Position numbers and translations under genes: made by a program. Under the pieces are notes generated by a model. That model did no database searches and had not been told where the DNA came from. It saw nothing but the letters and a program-made list of their open reading frames with translations. Of a stretch of DNA of 64,000 nucleotides, positions 1-64,000 are shown piece after piece. This stretch comes from Vairimorpha necatrix. Lineage: Eukaryota. The DNA lies in assembly GCA_036630325.1 (NCBI GenBank), contig CP142732.1, positions 558,001-622,000 on the forward strand, in the 5' to 3' direction. Position 1 is the stretch's first letter, and each line of letters starts with the position of its first letter.

Positions 1-411
1 AATAAAAAAGTCATGTACGAAAATGTACCATACATTTTTACTAATGACGGAGCATGCTTTAAATATTGTGATCCTGCTATTAATATTAATGATACTGTTA
101 AAATCGATTTAGAAACTAGATTAGTAGTGGATTATGTATCGTTTAAAGAAGGTGATGTCGTCTTTGTAATGAGAGGTGAAGACACGGGAAGAGTGGGAAT
201 TATAAAGAAAATACAGAATACGACAGTAATCTGTGAAGATTTGTCGAATAAGGAATTTGAGACATCAATTGATTCAATGATTGTTATTGGAGATAATGAA
301 GAGAGTTTACTTATTAGTTTACCAGAAGAGAAAGGAATTAGACTTACAGCACTTGAAGAAAGTAATCTTAAATTTGGAGAGATCGTGGAGAATGAAGTGG
401 AAGTCAATTAA
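1..411 (+). CDS. RPS4: 40S ribosomal protein S4 (eS4), C-terminal part; 5' end lies outside the window
   Basis: [26 protein letters not shown]-like [13 protein letters not shown] and [12 protein letters not shown] match the eS4 C-terminus; frame is open from base 1. Confidence 0.9.
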
Positions 412-524
412 ATTATTAACAATTTAAAAAATCGAATTTTTCGTATATTTTAAGTCTATTTACTAATAGTATGTAAAAAAGTTTATATTTTGATGTGTTT
501 AATGGTTATTATTTTGGTCAAAAT

Positions 525-1079
525 ATTCCGCACTTGTGGTGACTCAATGATACTAACAGTATCTGCTAGGTATAACCTAACCTAATGATACTAACAGTAT
601 CTGCTAGGTATAGCCTAGTTAGATCCATGAGTTAACTAAGAGACTAGACGGAGAGCAAAAGATGGTCTCGTGTGCCTATCCTACGTGATTATGTAAATGG
701 TGGCCGAAATTAGACGTCGACGCAGTCTCTTAAGATGCCGGGCTGGTGATGTGGCGATGTACAGAGACGGGTGTTGAATACTTTTGATTGTAGGGATCTT
801 TGAGCTAGACAATGATGTCTCTTCTCGGGCTTATAGATAACCATACCTGTTAAGTATATACGCTATGAGGCCACACTGGGCGGGATTTGAGGTATAAATA
901 GAAAATGTTCTCTTGAAACCAAAGTATAATGTATACGGCGGAGCTTGTTGGCGGTAAGTTATATGTAGGGAGTTTTAATATGTAAGAATTTCACATCACC
1001 AGTTTGAATGGAATTACATCCATATCTTCTAGTATCTATGTAAGGGGTATCCTACTTCTTACTTGCAAAGAAAAAAAAA
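525..1079 (+). mobile_element. 5'-truncated copy of SINE-like element (homolog of 14641-15430)
   Basis: Colinear shared blocks (ACTAAGAGACT.GACG, CCGGGCTG.T.ATGTGGCG, TAGGGATCT.TGAGCTAG, AAGAATTTCACA) and identical end TACTTGCAAAG + oligo(A). Confidence 0.65.
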
Positions 1080-1340
1080 TTCTTTAAGCCCTATTACTGT
1101 TGCATAAACAATACTAAGAAATAATAAGCATGTTCAAGGGCACTTTCTTTCAGACTTGGCCCTTTATTTTCCCCGTTAGTCTAGTCAGAACCTCTCAAGG
1201 CTCTTTTGGGATATACGCTTGGTATAGTCAGTAAATTTAACATCATTTTGTATCTAGTATCAATTTAGAAGGAAAGCTTCGTTGATTATAGTTTTATCTC
1301 TAAGCTAATGTCTAAAATATTGATACTAAATGATATATAG

Positions 1341-1378
1341 TGTTAACCATTTATTTATTAAGGGTTCTAAACCCTACA
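1341..1378 (-). repeat. 3' LTR (38 bp)
   Basis: TGTAGGGTTTAGAACCCTTAATAAATAAATGGTTAACA on minus strand, identical to 4378-4415. Confidence 0.95.
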
Positions 1379-4300
1379 TCCCCCCTCCAGACGGGTAGTC
1401 TCTCCATCTTCTAAACAACTCTTCCTTATCTCTTTCAAATCATAATGCCTCTTTTTAACAATTTTACCATCCAGTAGTCTCACAATATATGAATCATTTT
1501 CACTTATAGCTACGATCCTTCCGCGACCCGTGAATCTTCCCTTGTCTGTTTTCGCACGTGTACCTAAATTTTCTCTCCTAGCGATTCTTACCTCTTGGCC
1601 TACTGTAAATGTCTCTCTGTGTCTTCTCTTGAACCGACCAGCATATTTTCCATTTTCATCATTTTCAATTATAACTTCAGCAGTTTGATCTCTCCACGCT
1701 TCCATCGGCGTACATTTTATTGCTGTATGTAGTGTATTATTATATCCTTTGATTGCTCTTTCTATCTTTTCAGAAATATTCCCATCATTTTGCTTTATCA
1801 ATGTCTCTCTTATAGTTCTGATGCATCTCTCGATTCTACCATTACTCCTATGAGCTTCTAAGCCCACTTTCCTATGTTTAATATCATTAATACTACACCA
1901 TTCTTTAAATCTATTACTTACAAACTCTTTTCCGTTGTATGTCACATATTCCTCTGGAAATCCATCTTCCCTTATCCACTTTTGTAATACCTCTATAACT
2001 TCACTACTCTCTTTACATCTCAAATTCGAACCCCACAACCTTCTAGTAAAGTAATCAATACCCAGTAACACATACCTATTCTCTCCACCTATGTCCATTA
2101 AATCCAACGCCACTTTCTCCAATTTCTTTCTAGTTACTACGAAATCACATCCTCCTGTGTTTTTCCTATTGTTAATCCCACATATTTCACAATTCTTAAT
2201 TACCTTATTAATATGATCTTTCATACCAGGCCAATACCATCTTTGTTTAATGTTATAATAAGTGCCTTTGACACCTCTATGGTTTAACTCCTCATGTACT
2301 CTTGTTATTTCATGTTCTCTACTATCTAGGCTCAATATCTCTTTCACCTCACCTGTGGAAAATTCCCAATACTGTTTACCGTCCTTTTCTTTAATATGTT
2401 TCTGCTTTTTTCCCAAAATTTGTTTTTCGATCACTTCTTTTCTCTTGTTGTCCTTTTCTTTTTGTTCATCCGAAACTTCTACCTGATCATACTGCCTACT
2501 TAACGCATCTGCATCTGTCATCAACTCCCCTTTCACATACTCTATTGTAAAGTCAAACTCTTGTATCTGTTCTACCCATCTGTTTATTCTGTTATTATTG
2601 AAGTATGGCTTATTTCTGATCTCTGCTAATGCTTTATGATCCGTCATCAAATGAAATTTCCTTCCTCTCAAATCACTTTCAAACTTCTTTATTCCAAAAA
2701 ACACCGCCAACATCTCCTTCTCACTTATCGTATATCTTCGCTCGGTAGGAGTCAACATTTTCGATGCCCATTGTATCGGAATCCACTCACCCTCTTTATT
2801 TTCTTGTAATAGAATTGCTCCGATCCCCGTATTACACGCATCAATTCTTACTCTAAATAGCTTTTTTCCGTCCGGAATCTTCAACTTTTTCATATCTCTC
2901 AAGCCTTGCTTCATATCCTCAAAAGCTCTTTCCATATCCTCCGTCCAATTCCACTTAACATCTTTCTTTAAAGCCTCAGTAAGCCTTACTGTTCTATACG
3001 CATAGTTGGGAATAAAGTCTCTAAACCAACCAGTTAGTCCTAAAAATCTTCTTAACTCTCTAACATTCTCAGGTTTTCTATATTCCAATGTCTCCTGCTT
3101 TTTAATCTCATTCGGTCCCATGACCTCCCCATTAATTGTTACTCCCAGCAACATCACCTCATCTTTTTTGTATTGTATCTTTGTTTGGTTTATTCTCAAC
3201 CCACACTCTTTAAACTTTTTAATTACCCTCTCTAGTAACTCGTCATGCACTCTTACGTCTTTACCATGAATAACTATATCATCCATATATACTTCCACGC
3301 CTTTACCTCTGAATTCATCTAAAACTCTGTTCATTACTCTCTGCATTATATGAGGCGAATTCTTAAACCCCATAACCATACTATTCCATTCGTATACTCG
3401 ACCATTCACTTCAAATGCTGTTTTGTGCTTATGGTGCTCCTCAATCTCAATATGATAAAACCCTTCTTTTAAGTCGATAACCGTAAATACTTTTGACCCC
3501 TGTGTGGCTCTCATAATATCCTTAATTAACGGTAGTGAGTACGGGTCCTTGTCAACCAAATCGTTTAACGCCATCAAATTGCTTACCAATCTTACGTCCC
3601 CATTTGGTTTTTCAAGTGCTCTTATTGGACTCCTCCACTCACTTTTGGAACGTCTTATAACCCCTCTATTTTCCAACTTATTCAAGTACTCCTCAAATTT
3701 CACCCTAAGGTAGTATGGCACATTCTGCCCTCTTTTCACAACCTTTTCACCTTGCTTAGTATTTATTGGACACTTCTCTCCTGTGAGATATTTTATCTTT
3801 TCTTCTGATTCTTTAAAAACTTCCGGATACTTTTCAATTAAATTTTCTAACTTATTTACTGTTTTACATCTTTTCCCTTCATTGTTGATAATTGGTTCTT
3901 TCTGTAAAACTTGTTCCTTTTTAATTTTATATTTTTCCCTACCAGCCACACTTTCATGACATTCTCTAGCGTAATGCCCTTCTTTCTTACATATAAAACA
4001 TTTTGTAGTTTCTCTGATTTCTCTTCTTTTCCTATACATCCTAAGATTTTCTTTTCTTTCTTCCCTAAACTCTTTCAACACTTTATCCATAATCTCTTTA
4101 ATCATTTCTTGTCTTTCTTCTGACTCTCTCTCAAATTCTGCTCCTTTTTGTAAGCCTTTATAAATTTCCTCCCAACTGCTCCTTCCGTCACAAAAATTTT
4201 CAAAAATATAATCCTGCAAGTTCGCAGATGCCAAATCCATAACATCTTTCCACTCAACTTTCTCAACTTTCAATATTAACTTTAGTCTCTTATCTATCCT

Positions 4301-4387
4301 AATTGCCTCTTTCTCTAATGTTCTAGCCTCTTGACTACGGGACTCTCTTGTTTCCCTGTTCATCCTTGTGTTCGCCATGTTAACCAT
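1367..4387 (-). CDS. Gag-Pol polyprotein (short Gag, CCHC knuckle, RT, RNase H, integrase); no protease motif
   Basis: CFICKKEGHYAREC; IDLKEGFYH, MGFKNSP, YMDD; IDACNTGIGA; HEELNH...CEIC, LDLMD, SNGRIERC. Confidence 0.95.
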   Translation of the reverse strand: MVNMANTRMNRETRESRSQEARTLEKEAIRIDKRLKLILKVEKVEWKDVMDLASANLQDYIFENFCDGRSSWEEIYKGLQKGAEFERESEERQEMIKEIMDKVLKEFREERKENLRMYRKRREIRETTKCFICKKEGHYARECHESVAGREKYKIKKEQVLQKEPIINNEGKRCKTVNKLENLIEKYPEVFKESEEKIKYLTGEKCPINTKQGEKVVKRGQNVPYYLRVKFEEYLNKLENRGVIRRSKSEWRSPIRALEKPNGDVRLVSNLMALNDLVDKDPYSLPLIKDIMRATQGSKVFTVIDLKEGFYHIEIEEHHKHKTAFEVNGRVYEWNSMVMGFKNSPHIMQRVMNRVLDEFRGKGVEVYMDDIVIHGKDVRVHDELLERVIKKFKECGLRINQTKIQYKKDEVMLLGVTINGEVMGPNEIKKQETLEYRKPENVRELRRFLGLTGWFRDFIPNYAYRTVRLTEALKKDVKWNWTEDMERAFEDMKQGLRDMKKLKIPDGKKLFRVRIDACNTGIGAILLQENKEGEWIPIQWASKMLTPTERRYTISEKEMLAVFFGIKKFESDLRGRKFHLMTDHKALAEIRNKPYFNNNRINRWVEQIQEFDFTIEYVKGELMTDADALSRQYDQVEVSDEQKEKDNKRKEVIEKQILGKKQKHIKEKDGKQYWEFSTGEVKEILSLDSREHEITRVHEELNHRGVKGTYYNIKQRWYWPGMKDHINKVIKNCEICGINNRKNTGGCDFVVTRKKLEKVALDLMDIGGENRYVLLGIDYFTRRLWGSNLRCKESSEVIEVLQKWIREDGFPEEYVTYNGKEFVSNRFKEWCSINDIKHRKVGLEAHRSNGRIERCIRTIRETLIKQNDGNISEKIERAIKGYNNTLHTAIKCTPMEAWRDQTAEVIIENDENGKYAGRFKRRHRETFTVGQEVRIARRENLGTRAKTDKGRFTGRGRIVAISENDSYIVRLLDGKIVKKRHYDLKEIRKSCLEDGETTRLEGGCRV

Positions 4388-4415
4388 TTATTTATTAAGG
4401 GTTCTAAACCCTACA
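4378..4415 (-). repeat. 5' LTR (38 bp)
   Basis: Identical to 1341-1378; followed on minus strand by TGG PBS. Confidence 0.95.
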
Positions 4416-4702
4416 TATAGTAAACTAAAATAATGCCTGAATAATATTGTCTCGGGTTGGGTTATATCCACAATAACAACAATTAAACTACTAAATATGA
4501 TTTAAACCATCCAAGATATTCAATTGCAGAAAATTGCCAAATAAATATAGTTCTTCTTCAAATAAAAAGCCTTTTTCTTAAACTAGCTCTGTTCTGATGG
4601 CAAATTTTTTCTACTACTTGAAGTTTGCTTTTTTCATGCTATTTTTTTTCTTTAAATATTTTTATTTTTGATTTTGTTTGTTAACAAACAAACTCCTTAA
4701 TC

Positions 4703-15495: not shown

Positions 15496-16325
15496 GGAGG
15501 TGGGGTACTTTAGAACCCCCTTTTGAAGCGCTTCGATTTTTTTTTCGAACCCCAAAATTGAAGTGCAAAAAAAAGAGGAGCAGGAAGGGGACAAAAATTA
15601 CTAAGCACTTATGACATTAAAAATAACAAAAAAATATATTTTTTTAACAAAAATTAATTTTAGATTTAGTTATAATAATCATTTGAAGTATTGTGTCTTT
15701 TTTCGCCCTTCTTATTTTTTTAATTTTTTTTAATTGTTGGTTTATTATGAAAGTAGATTTTTGAAGAAAATCTACTTTAATAATAAACCAACAATTAAAA
15801 TTATAAATATTATTTATATAAGAAAATTTAAATAAATGTTCAACGATCTATACAGACTGTTAAATCAAAAAATTTAATTTAAATATGTTAAGTTATTTAG
15901 AATTATATAGTTTTATGGTTATAATCTTTTTTTAAATTAAATTTCGTATACAAATATATATTTATTTGGTATTTTTACTGTTTGAAGATGCAAGTAATTT
16001 GAGTACTAATGATTGCTTCTCCTTTATTTTGCACTTCGTTTTTGGGGTTCAAAATTATAAAGTATACACTCTCAGAGGGGAGCGGTTTTGTCCCCAATTC
16101 TAAAAAATCAGAAGGCAAAAATGCTTATTGGTTTATATTATTGTACTATCTTGTATTAAAATATAATTGTGTACATAAATATATATTTATTTATTGTTTT
16201 TAATGTCATAAGTGCTTAGTAATTTTTGTCCCCTTCCTGCTCCTCTTTTTTTTGCACTTCAATTTTGGGGTTCGAAAAAAAAATCGAAGCGCCTCAAATG
16301 CGGGGGCTGTAAGTATCTCAGCTCC
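15496..16325. mobile_element. Non-autonomous TIR element (MITE) with ~125-bp TIRs
   Basis: 15496-15622 is the inverted complement of ~16197-16325 (inner ~95 bp near perfect); GG...CC ends flanked by TA. Confidence 0.85.
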
Positions 16326-17197: not shown

Positions 17198-18507
17198 GGG
17201 AATAAATTTTTTTTTTTATTTTAAAGTGTCAAGTAAAATTTTTTTCAATCGAAAAATTAGTTAAAAACTATTGAGTGTGAAAAACTGGTTATTACATTGA
17301 TTTTAATTCTTAATCCTGATATTCTAAAAAAAACACATTGCTAGATGACGTTTGAATAGGTCAATGCCTAATGTTCTGAACTGTATTTCTAAACATGTCA
17401 AAATAGCTAAAAAAAATCAACGTAAAATTTTACGTTCTAAAACTGGATTTGTGTAACTACTTAAAGTATTTTTTTTTGGTTCTACATATATGTAAAGATA
17501 AAAATTTTTAAAAATTGAGGAATTTGATCTTTAATAAAAATTTTATCTATAATATATTACATAGTAAATTTCGGAGGAAACTTTCGGAATATTTTTATAA
17601 TTTGGTCTGTTCAGAAAGAAAATTTTTTGATGACAGGCATTTTGATATACAAAAAAAACATCCGATTTTTGACAGCCTAAAATCAATATCCCTTTTTATG
17701 AAATTAAGATTTGGAATGAACTTGTTAAACGACTGCTTTATGCTGTCAATATCTACAATGTGTCTTCAGCAGTGTTACAAATAAATTCTTTTGAAGGAAT
17801 GAACCCAACGAACGTGATAAAGCTTGAGGCTCATAAGAGCAAAAAAAAATTTCTCAAGTAAATAGTTACATTGCGCCGGCAGAAGCAAGCTCACAGTGTA
17901 TTTTGATTCGAATTATTTTATAAAAATTTTGATTAATCTTATATTTTTTTTGTAATTATTTAACACTTTTTTTTAATTATTGATACTAAAAACTTCATAT
18001 AAAATATGACAAGCTTAGATTTGTCAAAAAACAATATTTGGAACAAGGTTTCTAAAAATAATAGTACAAATAAAAACGCATTTACAAATAGTATACGTTC
18101 TTTAAATCATTAGAAAAGTTTGAATTCATATTAAAATTGCATGAAAAAATAACTGCAAATAGGTAGTTGAGAGATTACTAAACTACGAAAAAATAAGGTA
18201 AAAATTAAATGAATTTTTTTCGGGCATCTTCGGTCGACAAATTGTGGTATCCCGGGGAAACCCTCCCGGTTATAAAGTAATATTCTAATATACTTCTAAT
18301 AAATTGTTTTTTATTGGTAACTGTCCCTCTGGACTCTCTCTCCTGACGCTCTTTGGTCCTCTGTTCCATCTCCTTTTATGTGTACCCTTCCTTTTCTGAA
18401 AATATATTTATAGTAAATTTTATTCATGAAAATTCAATGAGAGTTTTGACAGGGAGAGAAATAAAATAAATGTTGAAGACTAACAGTCTACAACATCCTG
18501 CCCCCTC

Positions 18508-21378
18508 TCAAAGCTTTAGCTGTTTCCTGTGAAACCATCCTACTAATCCATGTACTTTGTACCATAATCCATTTTTTCCCTTTTTGCACACCTTGTATGG
18601 TCCTATAAATTTTTTATCAAGTTTGTTTCTTGAAAAGTTCTTCACATAAACACTTTCTTCGATTTTAAGCTCCTGATCATTAGTTTTCTTCGGGCTTTTA
18701 TCTGTTCTTATTATATTGATATAAAAGTTGTTTTTTATTCTAAAGGGATCGTAAAAATTTACTCCCGTTTCCAAGGACATCGGAGATATCTTAATTTTCC
18801 TATGCCAATTTTCATTCAATCTATGTTCAATAAGGCCTGTCAATTCTTTTATTGGTCTTCTTTTATAGATTCGTAAACTTTCGCCAATTGTTTTATTTAT
18901 TCTTTCACTAATTCCATTGGAACTAGGGTGGTAAGTAGGCGTTTTAATATGTTTAATACCTTTGTTACTGAAATATCTTGTGATTTCTTGAGAAATATAC
19001 TGGGTGCCATTATCACTTATAAAATTCTGTGGTTTTTTATATTTTTTAATCCAAGTCTCTATGCAATTCATAATTTCTGTCGAATCTGCCTTGTTAACAA
19101 ATCTAATTTGAGATATTCTCGAGTAAACGTCTGTTATTGTAATAATATATATCTTTCTCGGTTTATCGGAGATTTCTAAATCTCTAGCCAATATCGGCCC
19201 ATAAATATCACTGCTAATGGTGTGAAATTTCTCTTTTGAGGTGATCGTTTCTCTTCTACATTTTACTACTTGGTTTTTATTTTCTTTACATTTTAAACAC
19301 TTTGCAATGACTTCTTTAATATTTTTCTTAATCTGTGGTATATCGAAATATTTTGAAATATTATTGTACGTTACGCTACAACCTGCGTGTCCTGATATCT
19401 CATGTATATATTCTAACATAAATTTAATCTTATTAACCGGAAGTGTGATCTTTGATCTGAATTTTGACTTTAAATTTATCATTCTTTGTTCTTCAAACAC
19501 CTCATTCCCAACACATTCTCGTATAGTTCTTATGTAATCATCTTCGTTATTTTTAGTTTCCTCTGTAATTAACAACATTCTAGATAAATAGTCCGCTATG
19601 TTATTCTCTTTTCCTTTGATGCTTGAAATATTAAAATTATATTCGTTTAGTAGTAATTTCCATCGTTCGATGCGGGACGATATCTTCCTATTATTGTAAA
19701 TACAGTTTAAATTGTCTGTCTTAATTTCAATATGATATCCCTTAACTATATTTTCATAAAACTGCAATGCCTTTATTATTGCAAATAGCTCCTTTTCCAC
19801 TATCGAGTAATTATATTCGGTAGGTGATAGTTTTTTACTATAATGTCCTATCACTCCATGCTCTTGGAACAAAACTGCACCTATACCGGAATCGCATGCA
19901 TCTGCTTGTAAGTAAAATACTTTTGTAAAATCCGGGAAGTTTAAAGTTGCTTTCTCGTGAATGATACTCTTTACATCCTCAATTATTCCCTGTTCAATAT
20001 TTGTCCATTTAAATTTGTCATGTTTTAATAACTCACTGATCTTAGCCATTTTAGAACTAAGGTTTGGTACAAAAACTCTATACCAATTCAAAACCCCCAA
20101 TAATCTTTGTAAATGCTTTTTCTTTGTGGGTTTGATATCAAAAATTTTATTTTTCAAATACTCTTTATCTGCTCGAATCGAGTTCTTGCTTATGAAATAT
20201 CCCAATACTTTAATTTCTTTCATATATAATTTTGTTTTCTCAAAATTAATTTGTACTCTTTTCTTAAAAAGGCATTTAAGCACATCTATTAGTGCTTTAT
20301 CATGTTCATCTTTGTTTTTCCCAAAAACTACAATGTCGTCTATATATACGAAACAGTTTTTTATCTTACCTAATATTTCCATCATGGTTTTTTGAAAAAC
20401 CTTTGGTCCCGACTTAACACCGAATGGGACTCGATTATATTGATAGTGTATGTTCCCCACTATAAATCCAGTATATTTTTTGGATTCTTCATCTAATGGA
20501 ATTTGATTGAATCCATTTCGTAAATCTATGGATGAATAATACTCCATTCCTCCCAATGCTTGGAGTTCTTTAAATATTTTTGGTATGCAATTTACCTCAT
20601 CAGAAATTTCCTCATTTAATTTTCTATAATCTATAACCATCCTTATTTCACCATTCTTTTTATTTATAAAGAACGCGGGACTAGAGAAATTTCCTTTTCC
20701 TCTTTCAATAATTCCCAATCCTAGTAATCTGCCTATTTCTTTTTCGGCTTTTTCTTTCATCTTAACGTTAATCTCATAACCCCTTGATTTTAATTCAAAT
20801 TTATTTTCTGAAACTTTTAGTTTGTATGGTTCAACATCCATACTCGTAAATTCTTTATTAAAGTGTTTGTATTTAATTAAAAGGTTATAAAGTTCAATAT
20901 TCTTATTTATTTCTAATCCTTCATCTGCTACGCATAGTCGGTCAATCATTATCTTGTCTAGCGTCTTTTCTGTCACTTCTTCATAACCAATGATTTTAAT
21001 TATTTCCTCATCACAAATTACGACCTTATTTTTGTAATCTAAAACACAGTTATTGTTAAACAAAAAATCTCCTCCTAAAATTACCTCATGCGTACATCTC
21101 TCAAAAATATATGGTTCAATATTGTAATTCTTATTCACTCCTTCAAATTTAATTTCAAATTCTGTAGACTTATTACTAGTTATGACTTCTCCGTTTGCTA
21201 TAACTGTTCTAATAGCTTTATTTTCTCTTAGTGGTAAATTTAATTTCTTAGCCAAGCTTTCTGAAATAAAACTTCTACTGGCTCCACTATCTAATAATAC
21301 TTTAATATTGTGTTCCTTGATTTTAGCTCTTACAATGATTTCTCTAACCGAATCTTTTTCTTCTTCCATGATGTTCAT
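18508..21378 (-). CDS. Pol (protease, RT, RNase H, integrase); frame stays open up to 21507
   Basis: LLDSGA, YIDD, ADACDSGIGA, HEISGH...CLKC, SDIYGP, SDNGTQY, SNGISER. Confidence 0.95.
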   Translation of the reverse strand: MNIMEEEKDSVREIIVRAKIKEHNIKVLLDSGASRSFISESLAKKLNLPLRENKAIRTVIANGEVITSNKSTEFEIKFEGVNKNYNIEPYIFERCTHEVILGGDFLFNNNCVLDYKNKVVICDEEIIKIIGYEEVTEKTLDKIMIDRLCVADEGLEINKNIELYNLLIKYKHFNKEFTSMDVEPYKLKVSENKFELKSRGYEINVKMKEKAEKEIGRLLGLGIIERGKGNFSSPAFFINKKNGEIRMVIDYRKLNEEISDEVNCIPKIFKELQALGGMEYYSSIDLRNGFNQIPLDEESKKYTGFIVGNIHYQYNRVPFGVKSGPKVFQKTMMEILGKIKNCFVYIDDIVVFGKNKDEHDKALIDVLKCLFKKRVQINFEKTKLYMKEIKVLGYFISKNSIRADKEYLKNKIFDIKPTKKKHLQRLLGVLNWYRVFVPNLSSKMAKISELLKHDKFKWTNIEQGIIEDVKSIIHEKATLNFPDFTKVFYLQADACDSGIGAVLFQEHGVIGHYSKKLSPTEYNYSIVEKELFAIIKALQFYENIVKGYHIEIKTDNLNCIYNNRKISSRIERWKLLLNEYNFNISSIKGKENNIADYLSRMLLITEETKNNEDDYIRTIRECVGNEVFEEQRMINLKSKFRSKITLPVNKIKFMLEYIHEISGHAGCSVTYNNISKYFDIPQIKKNIKEVIAKCLKCKENKNQVVKCRRETITSKEKFHTISSDIYGPILARDLEISDKPRKIYIITITDVYSRISQIRFVNKADSTEIMNCIETWIKKYKKPQNFISDNGTQYISQEITRYFSNKGIKHIKTPTYHPSSNGISERINKTIGESLRIYKRRPIKELTGLIEHRLNENWHRKIKISPMSLETGVNFYDPFRIKNNFYINIIRTDKSPKKTNDQELKIEESVYVKNFSRNKLDKKFIGPYKVCKKGKNGLWYKVHGLVGWFHRKQLKL

Positions 21379-21428
21379 TTCACTTCTTCTTGGAAAATTC
21401 TTATCGTAGTCATTTCTTTTTCCGTTAT

Positions 21429-22295
21429 TTAAAAAACAGTCAACTGAATTATGACCATTGTGCTTATGAAATTTGCACCACTTCTTTTGTAGAGGGAAAT
21501 ATTGTTCCTAAAATTCTTAGTAGCTGTTTCGTGCTTCCTCATATCCATGTTGTTGTTTCTTAACTTTAAAATTTCTTCCTCCATCGTCTTTAGCTTCTTC
21601 ATATATGCATCCAAATTATGCACATCAAGACTTTCAATTAGTATTCTCTTCGTTTTGCTTCCTAAACCCTTCTTGAAGCATTCCCATAGCTTCCTGTTGT
21701 ACTCTTCTCTGCTTATCTTATGGGCAATACTATAATATTTTATATAACTATTGATGTATTCATAATACTCACTTATCGACTCAAAATTTTCTTGTCTTGC
21801 ACTGGATAATTTATCAATCCATTCTTCCGCTCTATCAATACTATAGGCTCTACTTAGAATTCTTTCAGTAATTTTACTTAATTCTCCTTTAAATACTTTA
21901 TCATCAATTGACTTATCACTTATTAAATCTCTTAAGATGAGCTCATACTGCTCACTGTTCCATTTATTTCTTAAACTTATTTTTTCGAATGTTTCTAGCC
22001 ATTCACACATATCAAAACTATAAATATCCTCTATGATATTTAACTCGGTCTCGATCTTCATATCCGTTCCTTTAACGGTGTAACTTAATTTCACTTTCTT
22101 CTTGTTAACCTCACTATGGTTAATCTTTTTGTAGCTCGTGCTCAAAATACTCGCACTTGAATTCAAGCTGTGGTATCCCGGGGAAACCCTCCCGGTTATA
22201 AAGTAATATTCTAATATACTTCTAATAAATTGTTTTTTATTGGTAACTGTCCCTCTGGACTCTCTCTCCTGACGCTCTTTGGTCCTCTGTTCCAT
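21429..22295 (-). CDS. Gag-like ORF
   Basis: Lies upstream of pol; RQENFESISEYY major-homology-like motif; true start uncertain because the ORF begins inside the LTR. Confidence 0.8.
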   Translation of the reverse strand: MEQRTKERQERESRGTVTNKKQFIRSILEYYFITGRVSPGYHSLNSSASILSTSYKKINHSEVNKKKVKLSYTVKGTDMKIETELNIIEDIYSFDMCEWLETFEKISLRNKWNSEQYELILRDLISDKSIDDKVFKGELSKITERILSRAYSIDRAEEWIDKLSSARQENFESISEYYEYINSYIKYYSIAHKISREEYNRKLWECFKKGLGSKTKRILIESLDVHNLDAYMKKLKTMEEEILKLRNNNMDMRKHETATKNFRNNISLYKRSGANFISTMVIIQLTVF

Positions 22296-22731
22296 CTCCT
22301 TTTATGTGTACCCTTCCTTTTCTGAAAATATATTTATAGTAAATTTTATTCATGAAAATTCAATGAGAGTTTTGACAGGGAGAGAAATAAAATAAATGTT
22401 GAAGACTAACAGTCTACAACACAAATGAAACCCATTTAGCATTTTTTTATCAAGTTTGACTTTTTTTTCCAGATTACAATATTCAGGCTCATGTCGATGA
22501 ATTTTATTATGGTTTATTTTTTCTTTCGTTAAAATCACCTCCGCTTTACAATTCATCAACATGATCACAAGAACTCTTTAACATGCAAAAATTATAGACA
22601 CTCAATTTGTAGATAATATTATATATTTTGTTATCATGTTACATAAACTAAGAAACATAGATATTATTATTTTTATGTGGAGATTCATTATTTTTGTAAT
22701 ATTGAGAGAAATAAAAATCAAAGAAAGAAGT

Positions 22732-38572: not shown

Positions 38573-39160
38573 ATGACTACAAGAGCTATTCAATGCACTA
38601 CATATAAAATGGTAGTACTGGGCTATTACAGCGTAGGCAAAAGTAGTCTGGTCTTAAAATACGCCAAAGATGAATTCAATGAAAATGAAGAAAGCACAAT
38701 AGGCGCCTCTTTTATGACCAAGACCATGAGCACGAGAGATTTATGTGTGAAATTTGAGATTTGGGACACAGCAGGACAAGAAAGATACAATAGCCTCATA
38801 CCAATGTACTACAGGGGAGCCCAAATAGGGATAATTGTGTATGACATCACCAGTAAAGAGAGTTTTGAAGTGGCCAAGAGGTGGGTCGAAGAATTGAAAT
38901 TTGAGAAATCTTCAGATTTCTTGAAAGTTCTAGTGGCCAATAAATTGGACTTAGAAAATGAGAGACAAGTGACATTTGAAGAAGGAAAAGAGTACGCGAT
39001 GAAAGAGAATATTTTATTTTTAGAAGCCAGTGCTAAAGAAGGGACAAATGTAAATTTAATATTTGAGATGATAGTCAGTAAAATACCAAGGGAGACACCT
39101 AAAACAAAGAAGAAAGGACTTAAACTTGGGGATTCATTAATGAAGTATTTTTGTTGTTAA
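38573..39160 (+). CDS. RAB5: Rab5/Ypt51-family small GTPase
   Basis: SVGKSSL, ESTIGASF, WDTAGQERY.SL.PMYYRGAQ, NKLD, EASAK, C-terminal CC. Confidence 0.92.
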   Translation: MTTRAIQCTTYKMVVLGYYSVGKSSLVLKYAKDEFNENEESTIGASFMTKTMSTRDLCVKFEIWDTAGQERYNSLIPMYYRGAQIGIIVYDITSKESFEVAKRWVEELKFEKSSDFLKVLVANKLDLENERQVTFEEGKEYAMKENILFLEASAKEGTNVNLIFEMIVSKIPRETPKTKKKGLKLGDSLMKYFCC

Positions 39161-39179
39161 ACAAATAAAATATCAATAC

Positions 39180-39483
39180 ATTACAATATATTACAAATTA
39201 CATTATATTATATTATATTATATTATATTATATTATATTATATTATATTATATTATATTATATTATATTATATTATATTATATTATATTATATTATATTA
39301 TATTATATTATATTATATTATATTATATTATATTATATTATATTATATTATATTATATTATATTATATTATATTATATTATATTATATTATATTATATTA
39401 TATTATATTATATTATATTATATTATATTATATTATATTATATTACAATATATTACAATATATTATATTATATTATATTATAT
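39180..39483. repeat. (TATAT)n pentanucleotide microsatellite with a few TACAA variants
   Basis: Directly visible, ~300 bp, between convergent RAB5 and CFD1. Confidence 0.98.
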
Positions 39484-39678
39484 TTGCGCATTTTTTTTTA
39501 TACTTAAACTTTATGTATCTTTTTCAAATATCTTAGATCTTAAATACATATTAATCCACTAGCTTAATTCCTTCTAAAACATTTTAGATCTTTTTTACAT
39601 TTCGATCTACTATTTAAATCTTATCTGAAATATCTTTTTTATAATATTTTAATTATGTTTCCTTTAGTTATGTTTCTT

Positions 39679-48799: not shown

Positions 48800-50743
48800 T
48801 TCGTACAAGGGGATTGAAAATTTACTAAATATTGTGTAAAAACAATTAATGTTTCAATTTACAACATTTTTATAATCTATAGATTTGAACTTATTATATT
48901 ATATTAAGACTTCTAGGCAATACATTTTTAGATCTCATCTCATCATTTTGATAGATATCATCTAATTTATTTTATATCTATTTATTTTACAGATTATAGT
49001 TTATTATTTTATTATTAATTTTTATTAGATCTATTGACTAATTATATTATTAATTATATTATATCTATTGATTAATATTTTATTATTGAATTTATTATAT
49101 CTTATAATTGATATTTCTTTTTTTAAACTCGTCATTCTAAATTAAAACATTTACACATCATTCGATATCGCAAGAAATCATAAATGTTTACATTAAATAT
49201 CCTGTATATTAAAAACCAATAACATTAAAAATATTTTAAAAATAATGGAGCCTTCTGTAAAATACAAATGACACCTCTGTACATCCAACAAACTTGTGTT
49301 AGGAGATTGTTGTTTATCAAATAACTCAATAGAAACACCATTTTTCTTTGGTATCTTTTATGTTTTGTGTTCATATATTCAACACCCGAGTTCCTCAGCT
49401 ATCTCGTAAATAAACAAAGACAGAGATCGACACTATTAATTTCACGAATATAAAATAAAATGTTTTCCTAAGCTTATGTGTTTTTTAGAGTCGGAAGAGT
49501 GCGTAAGGCAGTATATATAACCTACATTCAAATATTAAAAGCATCTGTAGACCCAAATCGGAGAATCCTACAAGAAAGTCCGCCTAAATGATTACAAAAT
49601 AAGAATATTAAATTGTATAGATACTAAAAATTCGCATACAATGCCAAAATACATTGCTATCATTGGTTTAGAGACCAAATTCTGTAAAACCATATTTTAG
49701 CAGCATCCCCTACGAGAAAAAATTAGCGTAAAAACTTTCGAATCGAAAAAAATTATGGTAATGGAACCTTCCCGAATCTTAAATTATAAAATGAAGATTT
49801 TTTTCAAAAATAAAATCTGTGTAGATAATTGAGATTATATACCATGATCTTACTATTTATAATCTCTAGCGAAAAATCTAAAGGACTTAATTTACCATAA
49901 AAATCGATATTGGATTTTTAAATTTTCTTATAATATGAATTAACGCTTTTTTAGATAATACTATAAACAAAGATGTTTTTGGCAGAAAAAAAAAGTTTTA
50001 TATCTTATTACTAGTAGGGGTTCATTATCATATATTTTATACGACCAAATAATATTTTTAGTGGTTTGGTATGAAAAATAAATAAGAATCTCCTGACAGG
50101 GGTCCTTTTATTTGTAGCGCAGAATACATTGGTAATTTGTTATCTACGTATATTTACTAAGGCCACGTGGTACCTGATCTTCATGTATTATTAAATTTTT
50201 TGCGAAGGACTTACAATTTATATTTGTGAAATTAATAAGCTCCTATATTATGCTAAAGACGAAGAATTACAAGCAAGCTTAGCTCGCTATTATGCCGAAC
50301 TAATTAAATTTTACTCGAAGAGAAGTCATTTTTCATATAATAATAAGACATGAAGGCGCAACAAAATATTTCAACTTCAATGCGGGCTCTGAATTAAACC
50401 TCAGTTTAAGTGTAATTCTAATTTTTTGAAAGTAAAATATTTTTCAAAGCTCATGAATAAAACATGATTTTACAAAAGAACTTTGGAGAAAATAATAGTT
50501 TAAAATCATTATATTTTGCAGTATTATAAATATAATCATATTTGTAAAGCTTATAAATAAAAAAACAAGGGATCAAAAGTATTAGTAAGATTTTGGTCTC
50601 AACATATACGGCTTCCAGATATTCTATAAATTCAAAATTTCTTTAATTTCTAACTTTTTAAAACATATGGCTTACGCTTCATGTCATAGATATAAAATAA
50701 TAAATAATTTAAGCAGTCAAGTTATTTTATTAAGAGCTTATAC

Positions 50744-51397
50744 GGTACATGACCGTTTGGAACCCGCTTCGGGAAAATGAACCCGAATTGAAATTTTAAA
50801 GGACCCCCCTTTAAAAAAATGGCCAAATTGGCAAAAACAATGTTTGTTGAGGCAGATGAAGTTTTTAGTGATGAAATGTATTTATACATGGAATATAAAG
50901 AAGAGTCTATTTTGGAAACATTTGATGCTGAATCGGCGTGCGCCTTGCTCGTTTCTGTAACTAGTATAAATACTGCTTTTTCCTTTAGGTAAAACAAGAA
51001 AATGTATAACCTGTTTCTATTTTGATCTCTAATCAATGAGTAGCATATGATGCCACATTAGCTAAGCAAAGGGATGGAGCACAGTACTAAGAATCACTCC
51101 ATAAATACTGATACCTCTAGCGATTCTGAATCACAACACCATATAATTTTGTTGGTTTTGGCTCATTTCTATAAGAGATATTCGATCTTAACATAAACAA
51201 AGAAGAACACTATGAGTACCTTTTACAGTTTCATTGGGCTTTCCAAATTCCCAAAAATCGCTGGATAAATTGTCTTCTGTCATTATTTAAAATAAATCGT
51301 TAAGTCCCTTTTTAATAATTTTTTTTATTTTTCCCTTTTTTTGAATTTTTCAATGCGGGTTCATTTTCTCAAAGCGGGTTCCAAACGGTCATGTACC
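50744..51397. mobile_element. Merlin-type MITE (654 bp, ~50-bp TIRs, 8-bp TSD)
   Basis: GGTACATGACCGTTTGGAACCCGCTT at both ends, inverted; TSD GCTTATAC at 50736-50743 and 51398-51405. Confidence 0.92.
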
Positions 51398-52239
51398 GCT
51401 TATACATTCTTTAATCGTTTTTGGAAATTTAAGTTTGTTCTTTTCTGTTCTTGAATAATATTAATAATTTTTTGCATCAAAATAATGTAGGATCCTATAC
51501 TTTCAGACCTTTTGCGACGCAGACATCCCATCTTCATTTTTTTTACGATTTTCTACATGTATTTGTATATTTATACAGAAGTAAAACCTGAACTCCTCTG
51601 TAACATAAAAAAACACTCTATCTTTGTTCTCTCGAATAGATCCTCAGTTTAATTTGTATTTTATATGATATTTAGTCATCAACCTTTCGTATCAATACAA
51701 AATTAACTATTATTGTGTGCATATGCTACGAAGCACCGTTAATTATAAAAAAGATTTTGTTTCTTCGTTTTCCTTTTCTCTGTTATAGCAAGTATATTCC
51801 GATTAATATCATATTTCCATTATAAATTTTCTTTAATTCTTTTATACAATTTAATATCTGTCTAATTTGGACTTAATTCAAAGGCCAAATCTACTCCCCT
51901 CAACTTCTATTTTAAGTACAATATGTTATATGATCTTCTATATTGAGTATCCGCTAGTTGTGTTTAACTTTATAAACCAGACTGAACATATATAAACAGT
52001 AAATATAAATGATCATCTTGTTCGTTTGTTCATATCTTATCTTAACATTGATCATACTTAGTAGCTAACATTCCATTGTATGTCTATTTGATTAGCGACG
52101 ATGGCATTGTTGCTTCTATCCACGTGTTAATATATATATCTTTCTGTAAGAAACGTACATTTACATTAAATTGTAATTTAAATCTTTTATAAAATTTTTT
52201 TTAGAAATAAGATAAAATTTTTTTTTATTTCGCCCCAAA

Positions 52240-62758: not shown

Positions 62759-64000
62759 TGTTATATATTCTTATATTTCTGAACCCCAATTATGAAAAAT
62801 AAATACATGGGGGCGATACCGAATCGTGAGCTAACAAGTGTTGGCTGGGAATAAGAGGCCGGAAGGTTATTAGAAGAGTTTATGAGGGTTGTTTGATGGA
62901 CTAGTATTGTCTAATTATGATTTTGAGAAGAATGTAAAAAGGGAGATTTTTGATCTTGGAACTGATGGGTTGAAAAATTTTATGGTTAAGAATATTAAGA
63001 TTGAAGATAATTGGAAAGTTATGGAAACCAAATTAGAAGAACTGGTTATAGAACAGGAGGAAAAAAGGGATAAGAGATTATGGATGATTGAGGAGGTCAC
63101 AAAGATGGTAGCAGAGGATATCAGAAATATTAGTAGAGAGGAAAGAATATTTGTGAAGAGAAGAAGTATAAGATGTCATAATTGTTCAAGAATTGGACAT
63201 AAAAGTCAGATGTGCTATTATAGATATAGAAATGTTAAGAATAATGACGAATGTGAGAAGATTAATAAAGAAGGTAGCAGTAGCTGCGATGAGGAACGTA
63301 TAGGAACACATGGAATGCGAAAAGACAAAAGAAGCAAGAATGGAAGACAAGAAATAAAAGAAGTTATGATGAGGTAGAAAAAATCGGATTAACATTAGAA
63401 GACATAAGAAAGAGATATATGAACGTTAGAAACAACGAAGAAGAGAAAATAAGTTATTGTAAAATCGAAAAGTTCAGAATCAGAACTGAAGAAGGTAAAA
63501 AAGTTGTAAGGAAAGGTCAGCAGGTGCCACAAGCGCATAAAGAAGAGCCGAAAAAATATATTCAGGGGTTAGAGACAAGGAATGTCATGGAAGGAAGATC
63601 GACGTCGGAATGGTGAAATCTGATTAAAGCTTTAGTTAAGCCAGATGGAAGTATAAGACTGGTTAGCAATCTCATTGCATTTAATGATTTAGTAAAGAAA
63701 GACCCGTATGAATTAGTGGACATTAAGATATCATAAGGAACACGCAAGGGTCTAAGTTTTTAGGTGTTTAAGACCTTAAGGAGGCTTTTTTCGGGATCGA
63801 AATAGAAGAGCAAGATAAACATAAGACCGCATTTAAGAATGATAAGATAGTTATGGGTGGAATAGTATGGTCATGAGGTTTAAAAACTCGCCCCAGATCA
63901 TGCAGAGAATTATAAATAAAATTTTTGAAAAACATTTGTGTGGTAAAACAGAAGTGTACATGGACGATATAGTGATTCATGCGAAGACTAGAAAAGAACA
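62759..64000 (+). mobile_element. Degenerate Ty3/gypsy element of the same short-LTR, protease-less type; runs off the window
   Basis: Candidate 49-bp LTR 62759-62807 (TG...CA) + PBS TGGGGGCG; gag with CHNCSRIGHKSQMC; RT pieces KPDGSIRLVSNLIAFNDLV, FKNSPQIMQR, EVYMDDIVIH with stops and frameshifts. Confidence 0.85.

Follow-up and report, generated by a model that had tools for sequence, protein, structure and literature searches.

A protease-less element of 3,075 bp, derived from the Ty3/gypsy group, occupies positions 4415-1341 (minus strand) of the Vairimorpha necatrix DNA stretch analysed here (64,000 nucleotides, the window). Its long terminal repeats (LTRs) measure 38 bp, and comparison with related families and host genes makes it likely that a host-type promoter signal and the start codon are both contained in them. 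We consider it rather probable that the element is organized as one microsporidian gene with duplicated regulatory ends, with a CCC promoter motif, a translation start inside the LTR and RNA cleavage directed by AATAAA in the 3' copy.

Architecture of the element

The window contains the 38-mer at two places on the minus strand (4415-4378 and 1378-1341; no occurrence expected by chance), and the two copies are identical. The ends of the element read TG..CA, and a 5-bp target-site duplication, CTATA, flanks both repeats. All sequence statements made on this LTR in the initial annotation were correct base for base. The features are as follows.

4416..4420, minus strand: target-site duplication CTATA, upstream copy
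4378..4415, minus strand: 5' LTR, 38 bp, TG..CA
4394..4411, minus strand: LTR nt 5-22, with complementarity to the tRNA-Arg T arm; holds a 6-bp inverted repeat (4412-4398)
4399..4401, minus strand: CCC core-promoter-like motif (within AACCCT; LTR nt 15-17), 11 nt before ATG
4387..4396, minus strand: two overlapping AATAAA of the 5' LTR, located at the predicted start of transcription or upstream of it
4385..4387, minus strand: ATG inside the LTR (LTR nt 29), probable start codon
4376..4378, minus strand: further ATG in frame, made up of the last A of the LTR and the TG of the primer-binding site
4365..4377, minus strand: primer-binding site (PBS), inside the reading frame; complementarity extends over 13 nt for tRNA-Arg(TCG) with its CCA and over 12 nt for the ACG isoacceptor
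1367..4387, minus strand: single open reading frame (ORF), 1006 aa; short helical Gag, CCHC knuckle, reverse transcriptase (RT), RNase H, integrase; no protease
3959..4000, minus strand: CCHC zinc knuckle, aa 130-143
3134..3613, minus strand: reverse transcriptase core, aa 259-418 (Pfam)
2555..2947, minus strand: RNase H, aa 481-611 (Pfam)
1433..2320, minus strand: integrase, aa 690 to about 985 (Pfam); private substitution at catalytic-triad position 817
1389..1401, minus strand: 13-nt motif before the polypurine tract, common to all seven families
1379..1388, minus strand: polypurine tract (PPT), 10-nt purine run adjoining the 3' LTR, translated in this family (family A)
1341..1378, minus strand: 3' LTR, same sequence as the 5' LTR; includes the stop (1369-1367) as well as AATAAA (1359-1354, 1355-1350)
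1336..1340, minus strand: target-site duplication, downstream copy

The ORF runs from nt 29 of the 5' LTR through the PBS and ends with C-R-V-stop at nt 10-12 of the 3' LTR (TAG, 1369-1367). The terminal repeats, the target-site duplication, the PBS, the PPT and the order RT-RNase H-integrase are all those of a Ty3/gypsy LTR retrotransposon. Furthermore, fold matches of the element protein include the RT of Ty3, and its closest named relatives are proteins of Nosema, Vairimorpha and Enteropsectra. The Gag region possesses the CCHC knuckle; in the ~125 aa before it only four helices are predicted, and its look-alikes in the Atlas are Gag clusters at 0.81-0.82, which are leads only. No Pfam protease was found in the element protein (P0001) at an E-value of 0.1, no D[ST]G motif precedes the RT, and the predicted structure contains no beta fold in the gap of ~35 aa between knuckle and RT. 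Among 26 aligned members, one has a Pfam protease (P0042, an outgroup). In a quick version of the tree, the 32 protease-less rows form one clade (SH-aLRT 96), with the protease-bearing relatives outside. The element works like and descends from Ty3/gypsy elements, but it lacks one defining feature of an autonomous member, the protease.

Ty3 of Saccharomyces cerevisiae (Metaviridae) shares the RT-RNase H-integrase order, the CCHC knuckle, tRNA priming, the PPT and the 5-bp duplication. However, Ty3 has LTRs of about 340 bp, two reading frames, a full capsid and a protease, whereas the element described here has one ORF and no protease, its knuckle is preceded by ~125 aa, its primer is tRNA-Arg and its PBS is translated. 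In Ty1 (copia-type, LTRs of about 330 bp) and further elements with a gag start inside the LTR, translation proceeds from U5 through the PBS; here, too, it would begin in the LTR and cross the PBS. The repeats fall within the size range of TRIM/SMART elements (under about 250 bp), but the interior is not non-coding as in these (1006-aa ORF). Indeed, SMART FRetro129 has 85-bp repeats with TG..CA ends and a 5-bp duplication, is non-coding and has formed solo LTRs (PMC3281118); the element in the window encodes RT, RNase H and integrase, its LTR is less than half as long, and no solo LTR of it was found.

Several other repeats are present in the window. A second LTR element (18243-22421, minus strand) has 253-bp LTRs, a gag whose start, at LTR nt 127, follows a GGG motif, and a separate pol with a protease; it has no TGG-type PBS, and several of its relatives share the same deletion of most of pol. 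The protease and capsid parts that family A lacks might be supplied in trans by a protease-bearing element such as this one, although only one full-length copy of it was found. A decayed member of the clade primed by tRNA-Pro (see below) is located at 62760-64000 (plus strand), with an LTR-like stretch and PBS near 62760-62822. Two MITE-like elements with long inverted ends (15516-16304 and 50743-51398; 146 and 58 nt, respectively) and a 10-bp tandem array (39097-39550) can also be found.

Family A copies in the genome

Genome G000 (15 Mb) contains 81 matches to the LTR. For the analysis of family A, to which the window copy belongs, 41 places were taken from G000, 40 of which have two LTRs. 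An exact 5-bp duplication is present in 35 of these 40 and identical LTRs in 32, and the frame is open and ends inside the LTR in 13 copies. The copies of this recently multiplied family differ from the window copy by ~0.4%, and the LTR (11 substitutions in 2850 sites) and the interior (431 in 113,804) diverge at this same rate. An alignment of LTRs across the copies, proposed as a check in the initial annotation, finds the motifs conserved, but trivially so: as LTR and interior diverge equally, copy-to-copy conservation is uninformative, and six diverged sister families were therefore compared instead.

None of the 81 LTR matches in G000 is a solo LTR of family A, since the two unpartnered matches represent a truncated copy and one whose 5' LTR is degraded. 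In family B, 14 of 15 LTR matches tie to an element. The family with 253-bp LTRs, which is older, has several LTR-only matches at 86-93%. The target site of family A is strictly palindromic (overall TA/TnnnA/TA): an A immediately precedes the duplication and a T immediately follows it in 35 of 35 cases. The window copy carries four private differences, one of them at the catalytic triad of the integrase (aa 817, window 1937-1939), and its integrase is therefore probably inactive. Variants shared between copies comprise 10 synonymous and 9 other changes, compared to 71 and 172 among singletons (p 0.04); this hints, if weakly, at copies relying on the protein that they encode themselves, i.e., at selection in cis.

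Two loci are rearranged. L021 (G000:C9:441249-445295) is a three-LTR tandem inside one duplication, in which the middle LTR joins internal position ~2100 via a 6-nt microhomology with the LTR/PBS junction. In L064 (G000:C2:1174105-1180326), an element of family F is nested in reverse orientation within a family A copy, and family F was therefore mobile after family A. A variant at LTR nt 19 (L025, L067, L070) was considered for placing the U3/R boundary and discarded, as these copies have no listed internal variant in common and no parentage can be read from them. A scan of 30 metagenome loci yielded no usable LTR pair; the two close loci (L081, L082) are chimeric or rearranged.

Sister families and their primers

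Six further families of the clade (designated B and D-H), with LTRs of 48-49 bp, were recovered from G000; no LTR pair was found at locus L130. The seven families are ~50% identical in protein. Six of the seven form one clade and are not independent; B and D-H being one clade, the seven families count as two lineages, to which retro_L of Anncaliia algerae adds a third. Retro_L resembles the element described here: it has a 50-bp LTR (38 bp here) and an ORF at 32-3049 of 3127 bp in total, and its first 300 nt contain a CCC, an ATG inside the LTR and an in-frame ATG at the junction, as here (PMC4202319). The main text of that study mentions neither "protease" nor "PBS", and short LTRs or the overlap of LTR and coding sequence are not discussed in its portions consulted (PMC4202319).

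The PBS of family B corresponds to tRNA-Arg, and those of D-H to tRNA-Pro(AGG). The primer has thus switched between tRNA-Pro and tRNA-Arg within one clade (B vs. D-H), without loss of the frame that crosses the PBS. Family F (L119-L122) has LTRs that end in TA rather than CA and contain no AATAAA. The 13-nt motif before the PPT (window 1389-1401) forms a small stem and is present in all seven families, translated or not; it has 207 matches in G000, compared to 24 for a control pattern.

A probable promoter motif and start codon within the LTR

A CCC followed by an open, in-frame ATG inside the LTR is present in seven of seven families, with a gap of 3-11 nt; in shuffled LTRs this arrangement occurs with a chance of 0.0002-0.003 per LTR (0.02-0.3%). 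For comparison with the host, 121 long ORFs from the window and its flanks were considered, of which 30 single-copy, non-retroelement genes were kept. In 21 of these 30, CCC lies 0-12 nt before the ATG; it is found further upstream in 2 of 30. The gap of 11 nt in the element is inside this range, whereas the ATG at the LTR/PBS junction, 20 nt from the CCC, is outside it. The host look-alike of the LTR named in the initial annotation is located at 40411-40393, upstream of a gene for a NUBPL/ParA P-loop NTPase, which fits the proposed CFD1 (CFD1/NBP35).

Protein N-termini point in the same direction. Among the best 49 proteins, 19 (query included) start with Met, followed by 1-6 residues, N/H/Y/D, Met and Ala/Gly, which is what an LTR ending in ACA/TGG encodes; the pattern occurs with both Arg and Pro primers. 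Note that the N-termini of relatives are gene-caller predictions. Seven others start at Met-Ala/Gly, and 23 do not fit, many of them being fragments or outgroups. The early Met is kept and the junction Met is missing in P0024, P0045 and Anncaliia retro_CK. As relatives without the junction ATG retain the first one, and the junction is outside the CCC range, the ATG inside the LTR is the likelier start. The second in-frame ATG, to which the initial annotation had drawn attention, does exist and places the PBS in frame; however, it appears to be a by-product of the CA/TGG junction and is missing in some relatives. CCC is present in the upstream flank (30 nt) of only 2 of 41 copies. Evidence to the contrary comes from 10 decayed, Arg-primed relics, of which only four retain the ATG at nt 29 and five retain CCC. 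The proposal that the LTR supplies a promoter-like CCC and a start codon is thus supported by the seven families, the N-termini of relatives and the spacing in host genes, and such a role is likely.

Stop codon, putative polyadenylation signal and hairpin

The stop codon is placed differently in the other families. In D-H it lies 16-27 nt before the LTR; in family B it lies 32 nt before it in five of seven copies, and the remaining two read into the LTR. A TAG is present in the LTR of family A, as had been stated, but this comparison does not support it as a function of the LTR; it is incidental and belongs to the read-through C-terminal tail of one family.

The first AATAAA (1359-1354) begins 7 nt past the stop and is overlapped by a second one at 1355-1350. 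The motif is contained in the LTR of six of seven families (F has ATTAAA only), in varying position; in B, D, E, G and H just 4 nt separate it from the end of the LTR. By chance it would be expected in 14-26% of shuffled LTRs. In host genes, AATAAA was found within about 40 nt of the stop in 13 of 29 cases, against a background of 11%. The suggested role as poly(A) signal is plausible, although the position of the motif is not fixed.

The 6-bp hairpin can form (-5.9 kcal/mol), but 78 of 200 shuffled sequences fold as well (z -0.24), and the inverted repeat is absent from the LTRs of B and D-H. It was consequently rejected as an RNA structure and would be better read as complementarity to the primer tRNA.

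Complementarity of the LTR to tRNA-Arg

A possible, still tentative addition to the organization proposed above is that nt 5-22 of the 3' LTR copy constitute the 3' half of a bipartite PBS, as in Ty3, where the 3' part of the PBS is located in U3 and pairs with the T arm of the primer (PMC5371799). The acceptor end of tRNA-Arg would bind to the PBS and its T arm to U3, and the RNA ends would be bridged in this way, so that a very short R would be enough for first-strand transfer. The apparent hairpin would then mirror the stem of the T arm, and its CCC would double as the promoter motif.

LTR nt 5-22 and nt 45-61 of tRNA-Arg form a predicted duplex of about 18 bp with one bulge, which adjoins the part of the tRNA paired to the PBS. 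For the comparison of tRNAs, 43 of 63 matches were used, one or two per group of equal score. The two tRNA-Arg (-22.7 and -22.3 kcal/mol) rank first and second of 42 distinct tRNAs, followed by a tRNA with -17.8 kcal/mol. The pairing exceeds that of shuffled LTRs (p 0.003-0.007; tRNA-Pro control, 0.24), and of shuffles in which GGG and CCC were kept in place 5 of 2000 reach its energy. Relics pair as well: L049 with -23.7 kcal/mol and L053 with a 9-nt exact match. However, the idea arose post hoc, and its specificity is limited. The summed Watson-Crick score for 11 Arg-primed LTRs is 78 with Arg and 73 with Ile and Pro, the G-rich T arms of tRNA-Arg rank high with Pro-primed LTRs too, if weakly (-9 to -13), and one unrelated upstream region reaches -20.9. 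Furthermore, families B and D-H possess tiny LTRs without such pairing to their own primer, and the pairing is therefore not required for tiny LTRs.

Proposed organization of the LTR and alternatives

In the organization that we favour, the CCC of the 5' LTR (nt 15-17) would serve as a host-type core promoter, with RNA starting at about nt 22-28 and translation at nt 29. The start of the RNA is placed there because 5' UTRs measure 1-7 nt in E. cuniculi (PMC2803860) and because in Nosema transcripts begin shortly after the CCC motif (PMC11592040). R, U5 and PBS would all be coding. The AATAAA of the 5' copy would lie no further downstream than the cap, the first of the two outside the transcript, and would not be used. 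In the 3' LTR, AATAAA would direct cleavage at or just past the LTR end (eukaryotic RNAs are generally cleaved 10-20 nt after this signal), which would be harmless for strand transfer. U3 would comprise about nt 1-21, R would extend from about 22/28 to 35/38 (~10-16 nt) and U5 would have 0-3 nt, so that strong-stop DNA would be only ~11-17 nt long. The stop codon in the LTR would be an accident of the read-through C-terminal tail. Compactness of the host signals would permit this layout, and the shrinkage to 38-49 bp would be particular to one protease-less lineage. In Tto1, the promoter, terminator and strand-transfer roles of the LTR are separable, and strand transfer works with 125 nt of redundancy and fails with 25 nt (PMC3061985); the whole LTR here has 38 nt. 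As Tto1 failed with 25 nt, some aid for strand transfer is likely to be needed, for which the tRNA bridge, the Gag knuckle and the conserved 13-nt motif before the PPT are candidates.

Another possibility would be that the LTR provides nothing but integrase ends and a repeat for strand transfer, that the element is expressed by read-through from the host and that the motifs are vestigial or weak. Transcription in E. cuniculi does often overrun genes, on both strands (PMC2803860), so that transcripts entering from flanking DNA could contribute to expression also under the favoured organization, and the motifs have decayed in relics. Yet CCC and the in-frame ATG have been kept across families that are ~50% identical and in Anncaliia, and the flanks are almost devoid of CCC, so that we regard this explanation as quite unlikely. 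At the other extreme, all five features (promoter, start, stop, poly(A) signal and hairpin) might be selected and host compactness alone might account for the size, as the initial annotation had it. All five are present in family A, and of 50 complete families in A. algerae the ORF starts in the 5' LTR in 43, ends in the 3' LTR in 30 and does both in 26 (PMC4202319). But the stop is outside the LTR in five of seven families and polymorphic in B, and the hairpin is neither stable (see above) nor present in B and D-H. Moreover, the LTRs of A. algerae range from 45 to 272 bp, are mostly 100-270 bp long and measure at least 90 bp in 47 of the 50 families (PMC4202319), and the other LTR element of the window has a 253-bp LTR with an ORF also starting inside. 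As overlap of ORF and LTR is the microsporidian norm, compact host signals alone do not explain 38 bp: they appear permissive but insufficient, most overlapping LTRs in microsporidia being 100-270 bp long. A selected role for all five features is very improbable.

The most far-reaching reading would combine the favoured organization with the tRNA pairing. The element would be self-propagating with a single, unprocessed Gag-RT-RNase H-integrase polyprotein; the same LTR bases would act as promoter in DNA (5' copy) and as tRNA site in RNA (3' copy), tethering the ends so that an R of ~10-16 nt would suffice, and the repeat would be too short for excision to a solo LTR. We deem this combination unlikely. 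If it were true, it would set a lower limit of LTR size, and the protease and a full capsid would be dispensable.

Significance

In the literature searched, which did not extend to subscription papers such as those on Nbr of Nosema bombycis, no LTR below 45 bp was found (supplements may hold more examples), and no listed paper dealt with coding LTRs of this length or with microsporidian elements of a lineage devoid of protease. In the portions consulted, PMC13174016, PMC4589312 and PMC3362945 contain nothing on short coding LTRs. The lowest earlier figures encountered were 85 bp, for SMARTs, which are non-coding, and 45-50 bp, in a table given without comment (PMC4202319). The element appears to lower the size at which an LTR still serves in transcription, in strand transfer and in integration. 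Because the repeat has only 38 bases, its signals are open to mutation one by one, which brings direct tests of the smallest functional R region and integrase end within reach. That no solo LTRs were found suggests an advantage for the element, namely that recombinational loss is avoided. LTR finders typically have a default minimum of 100 bp; such elements probably escape them and may be under-annotated in microsporidia.
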